Below, piece by piece: positions 9,693 to 51,278 of a stretch of DNA of 51,278 nt (positions within the stretch are counted from its first letter, which is position 1; every line of letters begins with the position of its first letter). The position numbers and the translations under genes were made by a program. Below the pieces are notes generated by a model, which saw only the letters and a program-made list of their open reading frames with translations, did not search any database and was not told where the DNA came from. Source of the stretch: Candidatus Peribacteria bacterium (GTDB lineage: Bacteria; Patescibacteriota; Gracilibacteria; UBA1369; UBA12463); NCBI GenBank assembly GCA_943349045.1, contig CALQZC010000003.1, forward strand, positions 1-51,278, given 5' to 3'.

Positions 9693-12050
9693 CTACACCT
9701 CTTCTGGAACATCCGCCGGCACATCATTCACATAAATCTCACGAGCCTTCGCACCCTGAGAAGGGCCGATATACCCACGTTCTTCCATGACATCGAGAAG
9801 GCGTGCCGCACGCGCATAGCCTACTTTCAAACGTCGCTGCAGGAGACTCGCGGAAGCCTTTCGGCTCTCAATCACCAGCTTGATCGCTTCCAAAACCATC
9901 TGATCATCATCCATCGCATCTTCACTCGTCGCGTATTTAGAATCAGGAACACCCATCACGGATTCATCAGCAACCTTACGTGAGGTGACGCGCTCATCAT
10001 ATTGTGGTGGCATCGTGACCTTCGCATGATTCGTCACACGCTCAATTTCCGCAGTAGACACATAAATACCCTGGACACGAAGTGGCTTCGCCATGCCGCC
10101 TGGGAGATAGAGCATGTCACCCTTTCCAAGAAGATCTTCCGCACCAATGGCATCAAGAATCGTTCGCGAATCAATCGACGAACTCACCGCAAACGAAATA
10201 CGAGAAGGAATATTTGCCTTAATCAAACCAGTAATGACATCCACACTCGGACGCTGCGTCGCAATCACGAGGTGAATACCAACGGCACGCGCCATCTGCG
10301 CCAATCGACAGATTGAGGCTTCCACTTCACTCTTCGCCGTCATCATAAGATCAGCGAGCTCATCAATCACAATCACAATTTTTGGCAGACGCTCAGCGAC
10401 ATCGTCATCGCCAAGAGCCGCCATATAGTCCGCAAGGTTTCGCTGACGTGCTCCAGAGAGTAACTTATATCGTCGTGTCATCTCGGCAACGGCCCAGCGC
10501 AGCGCAATCGCCGCCTTCTCCGGCTCCGTAATCACCGGCGTGAGCAAGTGCGGAATTCCATTATAGAGATCGAGTTCCACGCGCTTCGGATCAATCATAA
10601 TCAACTTCAGCTCATCGGGCCCATTCTGATAAATAAGCGACATGAGTAGCGCATTCATGCCCACCGACTTACCCGAACCCGTGCTACCCGCGATCAGCAA
10701 GTGCGGCATCGCCGCCAAATCACCAATCACCGGTTTTCCGGAAACATCACGTCCAAGGGGGAAGCGCAAATTAGAATCCAGTTCCGAAAACTCTTTACTC
10801 TCAAGCATTTCCCGAAGGTGAACATTCGTTCGTTTTTCGTTTGGAATTTCAATACCGACGAGCGACTTTCCTGGAATCGGCGCCTCGATACGAACCGATT
10901 TCGCCGCAAGAGCAAGCGCCACATCGTTCTTCAGGTTTGTAATCTTGGAAAGCTTCACACCTTCGTGCGGTTTCAGGGTGTACTGGATAACGGTCGGACC
11001 CACATTGACCTCATGCATCACCACTTCGATACCGAATTGCTTCAATTTACTCCGAATTTTATCGGCATTATCTCGAAGCATCGACTCATCAACGCGACTC
11101 GACTTGGCGGCCGGCGCGAGAAGATCGAGCGACGGAAATTCCCAAAAAAATTCTTCCTCCACTATAACCTCACCCGTCTCTGGATCAATTTCCTCCGTCA
11201 CGGCATTTTCCGGCCTCACCTCTTTCAGCACAATATCCTCCTCGCCCTTATGTTCATTCATATCAATACTAATCGTCTTCACGCGCTCACGCTCCTCATT
11301 ATCACGATCGGCATCATACTTTCCACTCTGAACTTTTTTCGCAAGCTCGGTCAAAACCTCATCAGCGAGTTCATTTTTTCGAATAAAAATTTCTGGAATT
11401 TCGTCCTCATCCTGCTGTGAATCCTCTTCCTCCTCTTCTGCCGTCTCGACGATAACTTTTTTAATCGAAAGACTGCCACTGAAGAACGCAAAAATTTGGC
11501 TGAGTGAAACCTCAAAGGTCAGCATCAGTCCAATAAAAAACATGGAGATAAACATCACACTGGCACCAATATGGCCAATCTGAAGAACTTCACGGAAAAG
11601 GAAGTTTGTGACGAAACCGGTATAGCCGCCATACTGGCCAAGACTTGCGGTCGAGTGCAGCTCGCTAATATCAACCGACAGGTGAAAAATACTGAGAATA
11701 GACACCATAAGGGTCATCATGCCTACAATTCTCGCGAGCCCAAACTGAATTGATTTTGAGAAAAAAAGCATCACAGAAACGAAGGCTAAAAGAACCGGTA
11801 TACCATACACGCCCCAGCCAAGAACTGGCTTCAGTAAACCAACCCAAGCCTCACCAACCACACCAAAATTTCCCTGCAAACTCAGAATGGTAACCGTCGC
11901 AAAGAGAAAATAGATGATTGCCGAGATATCTCGCGCGACACTCGACTTCACCTCAAACGCCAGCGATCGCAACGCGCCTCGATTTTTTCGAGATCGAGTC
12001 TTGGTACCGCGCCGCTCTACCGATTGGGATCGTTTTCGTCGTTTAGCCAC
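9693..12050 (-). CDS. ftsK: FtsK/SpoIIIE DNA translocase
   Basis: TM N-terminus, PHLLIAGSTGSGKS, IDELADLM, ATQRPSVDVITG, gamma domain SASLLQRRLKVGYARAARL; GTG 12050 start preferred because a -10 hexamer lies 6 nt upstream. Confidence 0.97.
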   Translation of the reverse strand: MAKRRKRSQSVERRGTKTRSRKNRGALRSLAFEVKSSVARDISAIIYFLFATVTILSLQGNFGVVGEAWVGLLKPVLGWGVYGIPVLLAFVSVMLFFSKSIQFGLARIVGMMTLMVSILSIFHLSVDISELHSTASLGQYGGYTGFVTNFLFREVLQIGHIGASVMFISMFFIGLMLTFEVSLSQIFAFFSGSLSIKKVIVETAEEEEEDSQQDEDEIPEIFIRKNELADEVLTELAKKVQSGKYDADRDNEERERVKTISIDMNEHKGEEDIVLKEVRPENAVTEEIDPETGEVIVEEEFFWEFPSLDLLAPAAKSSRVDESMLRDNADKIRSKLKQFGIEVVMHEVNVGPTVIQYTLKPHEGVKLSKITNLKNDVALALAAKSVRIEAPIPGKSLVGIEIPNEKRTNVHLREMLESKEFSELDSNLRFPLGRDVSGKPVIGDLAAMPHLLIAGSTGSGKSVGMNALLMSLIYQNGPDELKLIMIDPKRVELDLYNGIPHLLTPVITEPEKAAIALRWAVAEMTRRYKLLSGARQRNLADYMAALGDDDVAERLPKIVIVIDELADLMMTAKSEVEASICRLAQMARAVGIHLVIATQRPSVDVITGLIKANIPSRISFAVSSSIDSRTILDAIGAEDLLGKGDMLYLPGGMAKPLRVQGIYVSTAEIERVTNHAKVTMPPQYDERVTSRKVADESVMGVPDSKYATSEDAMDDDQMVLEAIKLVIESRKASASLLQRRLKVGYARAARLLDVMEERGYIGPSQGAKAREIYVNDVPADVPEEV

Positions 12051-12145
12051 GTGAGGAGTATAGCAGTTTCTGGCTTGAGGGGACAAGAGGGCTGTATGTG
12101 AGACTTTTGAGAGTATTTTTCGGGAAAATTACTCGCTATTTTGCA

Positions 12146-12307
12146 CAGGAATTTCTACCACAATTATTCCCGATTCGCAACTGAGAAAACTGTTATTTTT
12201 GGCTTGTTTCAGGTAGTATTCAGATACATTCTGGTCGCGGCAATCAGGTCTCAGTATCGAAGAAAGGCCCGCAAATAACACTCCTCTTATTTGCTAACCT
12301 TTTTTTT
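12146..12307 (+). repeat. Conserved upstream element, copy 1 (promoter plus structured leader)
   Basis: Colinear with 50907-51087; CTGTTA-N18-TAGTAT; hairpin GCAAATAA/TTATTTGC at 12271-12294. Confidence 0.85.
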
Positions 12308-13183
12308 ATGATTGATCTCTCCGCGCTTTCCAACACCGAACTTCTCACCTTATGTAAGGAATATGGTCAGGCGACGCTCAGTTGGCGTCGTAAGTTTCTT
12401 GGACTTCTTCCGGAAGTACACAAAAGAAAATTGTATGAACAGGCTGGGTGCAGCTCAGTCATTGAGTTCGCACAAAAACTCGCAGGGATAAGCGAAGAAC
12501 GGGTTCGCCTCACCCTGAATCTCGAGAGACGTTTCGAAAATAAACCGGCCCTCCATGAAGCGCTCGTAAATGGTGAAGTGAGTATCAATAAACTCGCGAG
12601 AGTTGTCTCGATCGCGACGAAGGAAAATGCAGAAGAATTGGCGGAAAAGGTAAAAATCTTACCGCGAGAAGCACTAGAAACATGGGTACGAGATATAAAA
12701 ACAGAAGAATCAGCCCCTTGCAAGAACCAGGAATTATTTTCCGAAGGTCTGCACGTGCATAGCGACGCATCTCTTGGAGAGACTATAACAACGTTCCAGC
12801 TCACCCCGAAAGTCCAAAAAAAACTCCAAGAGCTCCACCAGAAAGGCATCGACATCAATGAGATCATTCTCAGTGCGATTGAAAATCGAGAACAGGAAAT
12901 CGAACAAGAAAAAGAAACCATCAGTAACGAGTGTCAGCCAACCACCTCCAGATATATCCCAGCAAAAACTCGGAAGATTCTCAAAAAAGAATATGGGAAC
13001 AAATGCTCCATCAAAACCTGCACCAAGCCATCAGAAGAGCTCCATCACTCACAACGTTTCTCCGTAGCAAAAACCCACGACCCAAAGTACCTCGCTCCGC
13101 TGTGTAAACCCCATCACACGCTGGCGCATCTGAAAGATCTAAAATATTACGCTGCAAAAAATGAACGGAAAAAAGGCTCATAG
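12308..13183 (+). CDS. DUF222-like helical protein with C-terminal HNH domain
   Basis: SRYIP..CSIKTC..ELHH..LAPLCKPHHTLAH; N-terminus paralogous to ORFs at 51088 and 38977-39747. Confidence 0.85.
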   Translation: MIDLSALSNTELLTLCKEYGQATLSWRRKFLGLLPEVHKRKLYEQAGCSSVIEFAQKLAGISEERVRLTLNLERRFENKPALHEALVNGEVSINKLARVVSIATKENAEELAEKVKILPREALETWVRDIKTEESAPCKNQELFSEGLHVHSDASLGETITTFQLTPKVQKKLQELHQKGIDINEIILSAIENREQEIEQEKETISNECQPTTSRYIPAKTRKILKKEYGNKCSIKTCTKPSEELHHSQRFSVAKTHDPKYLAPLCKPHHTLAHLKDLKYYAAKNERKKGS

Positions 13184-13620
13184 CGCAAAACTATGGAGCG
13201 CAATCGTTCAATATCTACCCCTTCGCCCTGAATTTCAGCTCGAAAACGTAAACTCAATGCAATGAGATCTGGCCCTAAAGAAGTACCACCACGTGGAGCA
13301 AGTGTTCGCAAATACTCAAGCATATCGTCCAAATCAGCACCCACGAGCTGTGGAAAACGGAATCCGACAACCATAGACAGATAAGCATTATATGGAGTAA
13401 ATGCTTTTGCAGCAGTCATAAGATTTCCTTTTGACGCGAGACGTGACGACTCATCTCCATAACGAACCATCTCATCATAGGAGTAAAAACTAGTTAAAAA
13501 AACCAGAAAATTATTCCAATAATCACGAATAATTCCATTCCGACCAACTTGAATAGCCACACGAATCTCTGGAGTCAAAAGCTCTCTAGGATCAAATTTT
13601 TGAGGGGGATCAGGGTTCAT
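13147..13620 (-). CDS. Hypothetical protein
   Basis: 157-aa ORF; 3' end overlaps the HNH gene. Confidence 0.6.
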   Translation of the reverse strand: MNPDPPQKFDPRELLTPEIRVAIQVGRNGIIRDYWNNFLVFLTSFYSYDEMVRYGDESSRLASKGNLMTAAKAFTPYNAYLSMVVGFRFPQLVGADLDDMLEYLRTLAPRGGTSLGPDLIALSLRFRAEIQGEGVDIERLRSIVLRYEPFFRSFFAA

Positions 13621-38857: not shown

Positions 38858-38932
38858 GGCGCCATCGTCTAATGGTTAGGACGCTACCCTTTCAAGGTGG
38901 AGATAGGAGTTCAATCCTCCTTGGTGCTACCA
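38858..38932 (+). tRNA. tRNA-Glu (TTC)
   Basis: Acceptor GGCGCCA/TGGTGCT, anticodon arm CTACC-CTTTCAA-GGTGG, T-loop TTCAATC, encoded CCA. Confidence 0.97.
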
Positions 38933-38976: not shown

Positions 38977-39747
38977 TTAAACCACATCTTTCAAAAGTTC
39001 ACGCAAGGCATCCTCCCACGTGACCATTCGCCTGAGCCGCTTTTCAAGTTCGCGCCGAAACAACCGGAATCGCGCAGCAAGCGCGCTATTCACAGGAAAT
39101 GAAAGGGTCTCACGCTGAGTGGAGAGTTGCTCAAGTTTTGAGGGTGCACTTGGTTGACTCATTATATTTTCATCTTCTAGACGAGTAATTTCGCCGGCGA
39201 AATTGTCAGCTTTATTTTCATCATTTTTTTGGAGTAAAGATGATTGAGAAATATTTTTAACAGGCTCGCAACTCACCTCAATCACCCCACTCAGTAAATT
39301 TTTCTGCTCTTCTCTATTCTGCCTACGCAAATCACGAACGTACACAATGAGTGCCGATCTCGACAGATCCCTCAGTAACCCCAGCCACTGTTCCTCATTA
39401 TTCGAGGTGACCAACGACAAAACGGCACGAATCTTTGACCAGCCAATCTCGCCCGAGTACAGGGCACGACGCATCAAGCGTAAATCGACGAGCTGTGCAT
39501 CAAGCCGTAAAACCTCTTCCACAAGAGGATATCCAATCCCACCAACCACCGAAGCAAAGTGGAAAATCGAAGAAAATTTCTTCACATCATACGCGCCTCG
39601 ACGCTCCACGAGAGGCAAGAGCCCAATAAACATCCGCCGAGATGTCACCGCAACACTCGCGAGCTGCCGACACCGCTCGAGGAGTTCGCGATCGCTCAGG
39701 TGTTCTGGATCTGTAGTAAGGAAACCAAGTTCGTTCATGGCGTACAT
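38977..39747 (-). CDS. HNH-less paralog of the 12308 protein
   Basis: LSDRELL..C, RRMFIGLLP.V, FSSIFHFA..GGI, LYSGEIGWSKI align with 12308; ends in an RHH-like segment instead of HNH. Confidence 0.8.
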   Translation of the reverse strand: MYAMNELGFLTTDPEHLSDRELLERCRQLASVAVTSRRMFIGLLPLVERRGAYDVKKFSSIFHFASVVGGIGYPLVEEVLRLDAQLVDLRLMRRALYSGEIGWSKIRAVLSLVTSNNEEQWLGLLRDLSRSALIVYVRDLRRQNREEQKNLLSGVIEVSCEPVKNISQSSLLQKNDENKADNFAGEITRLEDENIMSQPSAPSKLEQLSTQRETLSFPVNSALAARFRLFRRELEKRLRRMVTWEDALRELLKDVV

Positions 39748-50906: not shown

Positions 50907-51087
50907 CAGGAATTCTCCACCACAATTATCCCCGATCCGCAACTCAGAAAGTTGTCATTTTTGGCTTACTTAAGGTAAGATTCAAGCACATTTCAGATAG
51001 CGGCAATCAGCACAGTATCTCACCGGAAAGGCCCGCAAAACGCATACCAGACATCTGGTATCCCTATTTTGCTAACCTCTCCTCCTT
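50907..51087 (+). repeat. Conserved upstream element, copy 2
   Basis: Colinear with 12146-12307; TTGTCA-N18-TAAGAT; GCAAAA/TTTTGC stem enclosing ATACCAG/CTGGTAT. Confidence 0.85.
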
Positions 51088-51278
51088 ATGATTGATACTG
51101 CGAACCTTTCTGACCTCGAACTCCTTACCCTCTGTCAGCAGTACGGCGAGGCCACGCTTATGTGGCGTCGCAAGTTTCTTGGACTTCTTCCAGAAGTGCA
51201 CAAAAGAAAACTGTATGAACAAAAAGGATTCACCTCCGTGTTTCATTTTGCAAAAGTTATGGCAGGCGTGAGTGAAGA
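51088..51278 (+). CDS. 5' part (runs off window) of a close paralog of the 12308 protein
   Basis: Manual translation MIDTANLSDLELLTLCQQYGEATLMWRRKFLGLLPEVHKRKLYEQKGFTSVFHFAKVMAGVSE; 45 of 63 aa identical to 12308. Confidence 0.9.
   Translation, partial: MIDTANLSDLELLTLCQQYGEATLMWRRKFLGLLPEVHKRKLYEQKGFTSVFHFAKVMAGVSE

Follow-up and report, generated by a model that had tools for sequence, protein, structure and literature searches.

What is the role of the conserved segment that precedes a predicted HNH nuclease gene at two places of the same bacterial contig, and why is it repeated together with the gene? The contig (C3, GenBank CALQZC010000003.1) comes from a Candidatus Peribacteria genome (G000; 1.01 Mb, 54 contigs), and its 51,278 nucleotides (nt) are referred to here as the window. 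Two copies of a cassette are present in the window, copy A (C3a, positions 12146-13183) and copy B (C3b, 50907-51278, cut by the contig end), each consisting of an upstream block, a sigma-70-like promoter, a leader of 80-125 nt and a gene for a protein of 291 amino acids (aa), which is partial in copy B. An earlier note, based on the letters of the sequence, had seen here an undescribed dispersed module of an HNH gene plus an RNA, either mobile, RNA-guided or autoregulated. We consider it somewhat more probable than the contrary that the leader is a cis-regulatory mRNA element that occludes the start region of a selfish nuclease gene. The evidence that bears on this reading and on its rivals is presented below.

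The cassette and the conservation of its leader

The two copies comprise the following features, all on the plus strand (ORF, open reading frame; CM, covariance model; MFE, minimum free energy).

12094..12145, left part of the inserted segment of copy A (left boundary approximate), G/T-rich and not alignable among paralogues
12146..12190, conserved upstream block CAGGAATTTCTACCACAATTATTCCCGATTCGCAACTGAGAAA, which aligns with 50907-50951
12190..12219, promoter-like site of copy A: -35 CTGTTA, 18-nt spacer with TTTTTGGCTT, -10 TAGTAT (12214-12219)
12226..12307, predicted 5' leader of the copy A mRNA; match to CM R1 at 12216-12310, 71.9 bits
12237..12242, box GCGGCA, invariant in 24/24 leaders
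12259..12267, purine tract GAAGAAAGG, 5' strand of the predicted outer helix, paired with 12298-12307 in the MFE fold
12267..12272, box GCCCGC, complementary to GCGGC, invariant in 24/24 leaders
12271..12294, inner hairpin of copy A in the predicted fold, GCAAATAA-loop-TTATTTGC; in other copies the insert at the tip is longer and variable
12295..12307, TAACC start-region motif and pyrimidine tract, 3' strand of the predicted outer helix, abutting the ATG
12308..13183, copy A gene (predicted ParB-like helix-turn-helix plus HNH nuclease), ORF of 291 aa
12374..12727, N-terminal helical domain, putatively ParB/Noc/KorB-like, residues 23-140
12935..13153, C-terminal HNH nuclease domain as judged from the AlphaFold2 (AF2) fold, residues 210-282
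50907..51087, copy B upstream region and leader: block 50907-50951, GCGGCA at 51000, GCCCGC at 51031, TAACC at 51073
51088..51278, copy B gene, first 63 codons from the ATG at 51088, running off the contig end

The resemblance between the two copies is real. The upstream regions are colinear over 160-180 nt (50907-51039 aligns with 12146-12275 at 79% identity over 135 nt, E 2.6e-24), 45 of the 63 residues that can be compared are identical (71.4%, tblastn), both copies contain GCGGCAATCAG, CAGTATC, GAAAGGCCCGCAAA and TTTGCTAACCT, and the motifs and stem-loops described in the earlier note are all found where it had placed them (the stem-loops at 12271-12294 in copy A and at 51044-51061 in copy B). 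The core of the upstream block, CCACCAyAATTAT..TGCAA, is found in six of the eight leader-bearing copies of the genome, C1b and C11 being without it; the block may serve as the binding site of a factor or be a degenerate upstream promoter. The pattern TTTTTGGCTT-N8-10-TADDAT, which joins the spacer element to the -10 box, matches twice in the window, only at copies A and B, with 0 matches expected (100 shuffles). The copy B promoter is called by a consensus scanner (TTGTCA-18 nt-TAAGAT, 50952-50981, 9/12), and the equivalent site of copy A is, by its sequence, a likely promoter as well, with the leader probably starting about 7 nt past the -10 box (around 12226). The leader of copy B matches the covariance model at 50978-51090, and its hairpin at 51044-51061 is called as terminator-like.

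The leader can be recognized by the signature GCGGCA..AAAGGCCCGC, which occurs 24 times, each time 35-90 nt upstream of a gene of the same family. Searched as GCGGCA-N8-32-AAADGCCCGC in the 16 genomes of the taxonomic family, the signature matches 25 times (in 8 genomes) and its reversed control once; 24 of the 25 are located 35-90 nt upstream of the ATG of a family ORF in the sense orientation, and the 25th, before an unrelated ORF, is a chance match. A covariance model built from the 24 leaders recovered the same 24 and nothing else from 151 genomes of the order. The matches come from 7 of the 151 genomes, all of one genus, with none in the 142 genomes of other genera, and the leader is also missing from two congeners that have 10 and 13 family genes. 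Given that the protein is distributed far more widely (see below), the leader is confined to a single subfamily within a single genus. Seven loci had no Rfam match at E<=1 (cmscan), and the only match in the window at gathering thresholds was one tRNA; the protein likewise lacks a family in Pfam and NCBIfam, in agreement with the earlier description of the module as a new one. As an RNA motif, the leader qualifies as a candidate new entry for curation of the Rfam type.

Among the 136 pairs of complete leader-bearing genes from the seven genomes, 107 have a protein identity of at most 55% and are synonymously saturated. Over these 107 pairs, the identity by region and the corresponding null values are as follows.

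Four-fold-degenerate sites: 27-32% identity; null 26% (composition)
Leader core: 64-66% identity; null 44 +/- 4% (shuffles)
Promoter stretch: 57-58% identity; null 48%
DNA 75-275 nt further upstream: 47-48% identity; null 46%

The leader core is thus 20 points above its shuffle null in pairs in which synonymous sites are saturated and the DNA further upstream is at its null, so that recent duplication, which the earlier note had named as the explanation to be expected if synonymous divergence matched, does not account for the similarity. A functionless, neutral leftover of recent duplication or gene conversion could be suggested by the fact that the paralogues recombine (the mosaics C24/C38 and C1a/C3a described below) and contain identical stretches that break the assembly. 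Gene conversion between paralogues does not explain, however, why both boxes are invariant in 24/24 copies from 7 genomes, and we consider this reading largely refuted, with a negligible chance of being correct.

The nuclease family and the turnover of its genes

Pfam and NCBIfam contain no family for the 291-aa protein, for 12 of its paralogues or for 25 distant representatives, and sequence searches of the PDB with the protein, the paralogues and a profile gave no family either. In particular, the Pfam HNH models (PF01844 and its relatives) are matched neither by the protein at E<=1, nor by the 12 paralogues at E<=0.1, nor by the 25 representatives at E<=0.01. Besides a sub-threshold DUF968 match in 2 of the 25 representatives, the sole profile match is PHROG phrog_22514, 'HNH endonuclease' (E 5e-6). 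In the AF2 model, which was built from 60 sequences (predicted local distance difference test, pLDDT, 91.9), residues 210-282 align in VIA with ScoMcrA (Z 6.7), the GVE2 HNH (Z 6.4), the HNH domain of IscB (Z 5.8) and EcoKMcrA (Z 5.3), all with moderate Z values; in 60 sequences, C233, C238, H246 and H247 are invariant, and H257, C266, H269, H270 and H274 are conserved in at least 90%. The predicted fold and the invariant Cys/His motif together support an HNH (beta-beta-alpha-metal) domain. For the N-terminal domain, Foldseek gives a weak to moderate match to 6y93_A (E 0.049, prob 1.00, target-normalised TM 0.64), and VIA aligns it with 6s6h_B (Z 6.0), KorB (Z 5.0) and Spo0J (Z 4.9), a helical arrangement that may be merely common. 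A ParB/Noc-like DNA-binding domain is thus a lead offered by the model and not a proof.

The designation HNH/DUF222-like in the earlier note is accordingly upheld in its first half and fails in its second when the Pfam model is applied. The DUF222-HNH proteins of Actinobacteria, known as the REP13E12 repeat family, resemble the cassette protein in combining a helical N-terminal part with a C-terminal HNH domain and in being encoded by genes that are repeated in the genome. The Pfam DUF222 model (PF02720), however, is not matched by the cassette protein or by 11 paralogues, and a six-frame search of the genome returned 0 matches at E<=1. A language-model search pointed to a Bdellovibrionota cluster (score 0.95) in which 70% of the members contain HNH and 14% contain DUF222, which is a weak lead.

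A profile search retrieved 11,897 cluster representatives at E<=1e-3, 684 of them at E<=1e-30, and the named homologues come from metagenome-assembled genomes of Candidatus Peribacteria, Peregrinibacteria and Gracilibacteria. Within the order, 114 of the 151 genomes (70/92 genera) have the family, and many of these contain at least 10-15 family matches per genome of about 1.2 Mb (the best 15 candidates were scored); the small-genome, Peribacteria-like bacteria of this order thus show a large expansion of the gene family. Bacteria of the candidate phyla radiation (CPR), whose genomes measure about 1 Mb, are regarded as poor in mobile elements; here, an uncharacterized nuclease family, often in at least 10-15 copies, takes up about 1-2% of the genome. 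None of the papers listed in literature searches on the topic describes this nuclease family, and a passage search of the Peribacteria genome article PMC4736985 did not find the word 'endonuclease'.

In the genome from which the window comes, tblastn gives 16 matches to the protein on 12 contigs, and 8 of the 16 carry the leader. Several of the matches are contig-end fragments that share identical stretches, which indicates that the assembly breaks in the repeat and that at least about 13 genes exist; for example, contig C16 ends with the same 39-aa stretch (MWRRKF..AGVSE) with which contig C1 begins. The repeat family is a main cause of the assembly breaks, and its repeats explain the fragmentation of these assemblies. 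Six contig ends are located inside family genes (window 51088-51278, C16:21021-21220, C1:1-759, and one each on C47, C11 and C38). Logan contigs from three DNA runs of one study confirm both junctions of copy A and break at 12249-12278, inside the leader; none of them joined across an empty site.

Identity between paralogues is mosaic. The genes C24:4715-5557 and C38:9984-10751 are 94.7% identical over 152 nt of the HNH region and about 68% identical elsewhere, and between C1a (C1:1-759) and C3a (12308-13183) identity falls from 81% in the 3' portion to 67% in the 5' portion. This pattern points to gene conversion among the copies.

The genes that surround copy A, and a further family member in the window, are as follows.

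9693..12086, minus strand, ftsK, left flank of copy A, with a promoter-like site at 12086-12057
13147..13620, minus strand, orfX, 157 aa, no Pfam family, right flank of copy A; its final 12 codons are antisense to the tail of the HNH ORF
38980..39738, minus strand, third, distant paralogue, 33% identical to the protein over 134 aa (tblastn), N-terminal domain only

Copy A is inserted between the ftsK promoter and the stop codon of the 157-aa ORF, which is followed by gltX. The HNH gene is missing between ftsK and gltX in all six congeners that are informative at this site (G002 and G008 are not): in G001, G004, G005, G006 and G007 the starts of ftsK and gltX are 40-100 nt apart, and in G003 the 157-aa ORF is present with no HNH gene. 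Likeness to the empty sites of G003 and G001 stops just past the ftsK promoter, at about 12093, and at the other end the C3a ORF extends, with its last 12 codons, across the native end of the 157-aa ORF on the opposite strand. Within the genus, this 157-aa ORF occupies the site only in G000 and G003.

Three other copies show the same kind of polymorphism. C1b is an insertion of 1,181 nt, in place of which G008 has 13 nt; the site is also empty in G005 and G002, is occupied by a paralogue in G001, and contains 0.55-1.2 kb of DNA in G003, G006 and G007. C24 is missing from G003 and G004, which have an 80-nt intergenic region instead, and the site is occupied in G001, and C2b is missing from G008, G004, G003 and G002. 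Since all four tested copies have empty sites in congeners, the cassette is either mobile or rapidly gained and lost, as the earlier note had envisaged under its mobile option, and it is gained and lost as a unit of 1.05-1.2 kb. Homology between paralogues begins 135-180 nt upstream of the ATG, and its other end falls in the range from about 50 nt ahead of the stop codon to 17 nt past it.

Among known systems, free-standing HNH homing endonuclease genes, such as the mob genes of phage T4 and the genes of I-HmuI-like enzymes, are comparable in that a DNA-binding module and an HNH domain are encoded by a single intergenic gene that is present or absent among close relatives. The cassettes differ in being chromosomal, in 13-16 copies at unrelated loci of a bacterium with a genome of about 1 Mb, in their putative ParB-like DNA-binding domain, and in the lack of phage, plasmid or viral-contig relatives: no relative of the protein was detected by tblastn against plasmids and phages or by a scan of viral contigs.

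Several minor features of the family genes can be added. Among the copies of G000 with both flanks known, 5/8 run opposite to both neighbours, and the 3' end of the family gene abuts the 3' end of a convergent gene in 9/12 cases, with gaps of -33 to 196 nt. The distant paralogue at 38980-39738 lacks the HNH part and the leader and is convergent to a tRNA gene (38858-38929). In three loci of relatives (L029, L030 and L052), a tRNA-like sequence, identified by eye, is located on the opposite strand directly upstream of the HNH family gene.

The predicted leader hairpin and its alternatives

Every leader is predicted to form a long hairpin that extends from the purine tract and GCCCGC to a few bases before the AUG. 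In 19/24 leaders, at least 5 base pairs of the MFE fold join the purine tract GAAGAAAGG to the pyrimidine tract downstream of TAACC; relative to dinucleotide shuffles, the fold z-score averages -2.54, with 19/24 leaders below -2 (the copy A leader scored -1.99 in one run and -3.99 in another). The inner stem varies by subgroup in a compensatory manner (AAAAATA/TATTTTT, GAAAATA/TATTTTC, AAGAAA/TTTCTT, CCCGCTTAC/GTGAGGTGGG and CCGCCA/TGGTGG), and its tip consists, across copies, of unrelated hairpins of differing length at the same position. Changes on both sides are seen in 7 of the 18 pairs, and 20 cells are changed on both sides, compared with 9.1 +/- 2.8 in shuffles (0/500); 81.7% of the cells are paired, compared with 53-66% in slid controls. 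Pair 50:147 is a clean covarying pair (AU 12, GC 6, GU 6, none unpaired). G-U pairs are frequent in the helix, as in 24/24 leaders at 59:139; with so many of them, the helix exists on the mRNA strand only, which favours RNA over a palindrome in double-stranded DNA.

The position of the hairpin relates to the way in which genes of this lineage appear to start. GGAGG precedes 4 of the 506 long ORFs of the genome and TAACC precedes 36/506, which suggests, at the level of sequence, that the lineage uses a start signal other than the Shine-Dalgarno motif. Motifs of the ACCCC type are also enriched before start codons throughout the genome. Given that TAACC is enriched genome-wide and lies within the helix, the predicted hairpin buries the start-region signal of the lineage.

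The reading that we favour combines these elements as follows. A cassette of about 1.05-1.2 kb would carry a single nuclease gene preceded by the upstream block, its own sigma-70-type promoter and the structured 5' leader, and such cassettes would behave as selfish or mobile genes, or as rapidly exchanged nuclease genes. In the mRNA, the purine tract GAAGAAAGG would pair with the pyrimidine tract and the TAACC start signal just before the AUG, closing a long hairpin with a variable tip. The hairpin would hold translation down, and its U-rich 3' side could possibly curb transcription as well. The boxes GCGGCA and GCCCGC would then be the likely switch, acting either through an alternative pairing by which the hairpin is opened at its base, or as a protein-binding site, possibly for the nuclease itself. 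Of this scheme, the observed parts are the layout, the conservation past synonymous saturation, the confinement to one genus and one gene family, the predicted fold and the variable occupancy of sites, whereas the transcription start, what the hairpin and the boxes do, and how the cassettes move are inferred.

A precedent for such an arrangement is provided by the transposase mRNA leaders of IS10 and IS200, which hide the ribosome-binding site in a hairpin. In both cases the leader of a selfish gene folds, here by prediction, with the start region base-paired, which suggests low expression. The cassette differs in having no transposase or terminal repeats and in having two additional invariant GC boxes, and the signal that would be occluded is TAACC with the pyrimidine tract and not a Shine-Dalgarno sequence. 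By analogy, free-standing HNH homing endonuclease genes and start-occluding transposase leaders appear to be the closest working models for the two parts of the cassette.

The main rival holds that the upstream sequence acts as DNA, either as an operator, possibly for the ParB-like domain of the nuclease itself, or as a recombination or homing site, and that the RNA hairpin is incidental. GCGGCA and GCCCGC form an imperfect inverted repeat, the invariance of which fits sequence-specific recognition by a protein, and the protein has a putative ParB/Noc/KorB-like DNA-binding domain. Moreover, the homology between paralogues spans the region from the upstream segment to the stop codon, and other paralogues as well as 21/76 loci of relatives have a DNA palindrome, the putative LexA box discussed below, in the equivalent upstream region. 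However, the spacing of the boxes varies (matches of 33-37 nt), which is awkward for a dimeric DNA binder and natural for an RNA loop, and the complementarity of the helix depends on many G-U pairs that exist on the sense strand only. Variable apical hairpins at a fixed position are a hallmark of RNA, and the boxes are located downstream of the -10 element and hence are probably transcribed. On balance, we regard an action at the DNA level as unlikely, if still worth serious consideration.

The two boxes could also be the aptamer of a riboswitch or attenuator, in which a metabolite or a stress signal would decide whether GCGGCA..GCCCGC or the competing hairpin downstream (terminator-like or start-occluding) forms. 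In two subgroups of leaders, CCCGC is at the base of a hairpin, on its 5' side, and a U run comes after the hairpin (CCCGCTTAC..GTGAGGTGGG-TATTTTTTT and CCGCCA..TGGTGG-TTTTTTT); with GCGG as strand 1, this is the classical choice between 1:2 and 2:3 pairing. A terminator-like site is called in copy B. The putative aptamer loop, however, is poorly conserved and only about 25 nt long, the leader has no Rfam match, no terminator is called by the same type of scan in the leaders of copy A and C24, the motif is restricted to one genus, and metabolite control of a selfish nuclease gene has no obvious logic. A riboswitch is therefore improbable in our estimate. RNAalifold applied to a MAFFT alignment yields only the invariant GCGGC/GCCCGC pairing with zero covariation, and the GCGGCA/GCCCGC pairing is present in 0/24 MFE folds; because both boxes are invariant, their pairing cannot covary. 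We do not claim this pairing as a demonstrated structure.

A third possibility, which corresponds to the RNA-guided option of the earlier note, is that the upstream RNA acts in trans as a partner of the HNH protein, be it a guide of the OMEGA/IscB or HEARO type or a scaffold. The likeness to IscB systems consists in an HNH gene behind a conserved structured sequence, multiple copies linked to mobility, and an HNH domain similar in structure to that of IscB (Z 5.8 for OrufIscB, with a further value of 5.0); in addition, a variable stretch of 10-14 nt precedes the invariant GCGGCA. Only the HNH domain of IscB can be aligned, however, over 58-59 residues, and the 291-aa protein consists of the ParB-like domain, a linker and HNH, with no RuvC, PLMP or bridge-helix match in fold searches. 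The RNA is a short 5' untranslated region of 80-125 nt that follows the promoter of the gene itself and runs into the start codon, unlike the 200-300 nt scaffold plus guide of OMEGA systems; HEARO and Rfam models are unmatched even at E<=1, and no ends of the IS200/IS605 type were seen. Also, 11-mer matching of the variable leader segments to the genome gave counts at chance level and is uninformative, and the protein family is widespread without the leader (0/142 genomes outside the genus have it), so that the protein does not need this RNA. We accordingly set the RNA-guided option aside as very improbable.

Several observations weigh against the favoured reading of a start-occluding leader on a selfish gene. 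Promoter, transcription start and leader are each predicted from sequence, and the promoter with an 18-bp spacer that the earlier note had assigned to both copies stands as far as the spacer and the -10 box are concerned, the -35 element of copy A (CTGTTA) being too weak to be called by the consensus scanner. The outer helix is missing from the MFE fold in 5/24 leaders. Shuffled sequences still pair 78.5 +/- 0.8% of the cells, compared with the observed 81.7%, and a shift of the 3' strand by +1 leaves the covariation score as high as before (0.189 vs 0.183), in both cases because the tracts are A/U-rich; the support from covariation is moderate, and the 24 leader sequences come from one genus and represent few lineages. 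The invariant boxes are not accounted for by the hairpin model. With respect to mobility, the alignment of flanks proposed in the earlier note revealed the empty sites that had been sought, and the comparison of paralogues showed no shared 3' non-coding end, no terminal repeats and no transposase. There is also no consistent target duplication: a 13-nt direct repeat flanks one of three insertions examined (C1b), and at C3a and C24 no repeat reaches 7 nt. Without a transposase, a conserved 3' end or a consistent duplication, the term 'mobile' denotes presence and absence among congeners and nothing beyond that.

LexA-type boxes and other upstream modules

Part of the family that lacks the leader carries a different upstream signal. 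The palindrome GTGAG-N6-CTCAC occurs 12 times in the genome, with a spacing of 6 only and with 0 occurrences for two control arrangements, and in 8/12 cases, in the form GGTGAG-N6-CTCACC, it is placed exactly between a -35 TTGACG and a -10 TATACT (C23:11253, C31:8765, C1:14028, C1:52311, C15:8484, C16:14640, C41:5505 and C48:5662). The genes behind these eight promoters are lexA, recA, four Bro-N (DinD-like) genes, one KilA-N gene and one small ORF. From this context, the palindrome is very probably the LexA operator of the lineage. The candidate operator and the non-Shine-Dalgarno starts matter for the annotation of CPR genomes.

Three leaderless HNH paralogues, C2b (C2:25834), C42:4987 and C45:1808, have a perfect box at the left edge of the conserved unit, and among the loci of relatives (L021-L100) 21/76 have a box within 260 nt upstream, compared with 0/76 for the control, so that many members of the family are probably induced in the SOS response. 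The leader-bearing copies, including copies A and B (C3a and C3b) and C24, have no box within 500 nt, even with up to 2 mismatches; the exception is a box beside C1b that is native to the promoter of the neighbouring rsmH gene. The leader thus seems to be an alternative control module to the LexA box in the leader-bearing subfamily.

The HNH nucleases of colicins and pyocins are controlled by LexA as parts of the SOS regulon. The likeness to the present family lies in the GTGAG-N6-CTCAC boxes of C2b, C42, C45 and the 21/76 loci of relatives; the differences are that copies A and B have no such box within 500 nt and that no immunity gene accompanies the nuclease gene of the cassette.

In a more far-reaching version of the reading that we favour, the cassette would be a new kind of single-gene mobile element of CPR bacteria that spreads into intergenic DNA without a transposase and has interchangeable heads, the LexA box of the host or, in this genus, the leader RNA, with the nuclease binding the boxes of its own leader, either for autoregulation or to couple its activity to its own transcript. 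In this complete form, we consider the scheme speculative and rather unlikely. The definition of the cassette, its empty sites and its two regulatory modules nonetheless make the spread and restraint of a selfish nuclease in minimal genomes testable.

The possibility that the cassettes target LexA boxes was considered and rejected: the empty site of C2b in G008 has no box, and neither do the sites of C3a and C24. Since the C2b empty site in G008 is without a box, the box at C2b is part of the left end of the cassette.

The promoter of rsmH, the first gene of the division cluster, contains AGTGAG-N6-CTCACC in three species (G000, C1:37150-37190; G008; G001). The C1b cassette is located directly beside this box, and the 13-nt direct repeat at C1b includes the right arm of the box.

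Finally, we also observe other upstream layouts in family genes of other genera (L024-L100, e.g., L083, L079 and L100). In one that other subfamilies share, the palindrome is followed by TTTTGTCACGTnGAARTGG, TTTAACCTGTTAAA, TGCTAGAAT, TTAACC and the ATG; in another, a GGCTT-N4-AAGCC hairpin is followed by ATTGACA..TTTTTCAAG. By their sequences, these layouts look like further family-specific regulatory modules.

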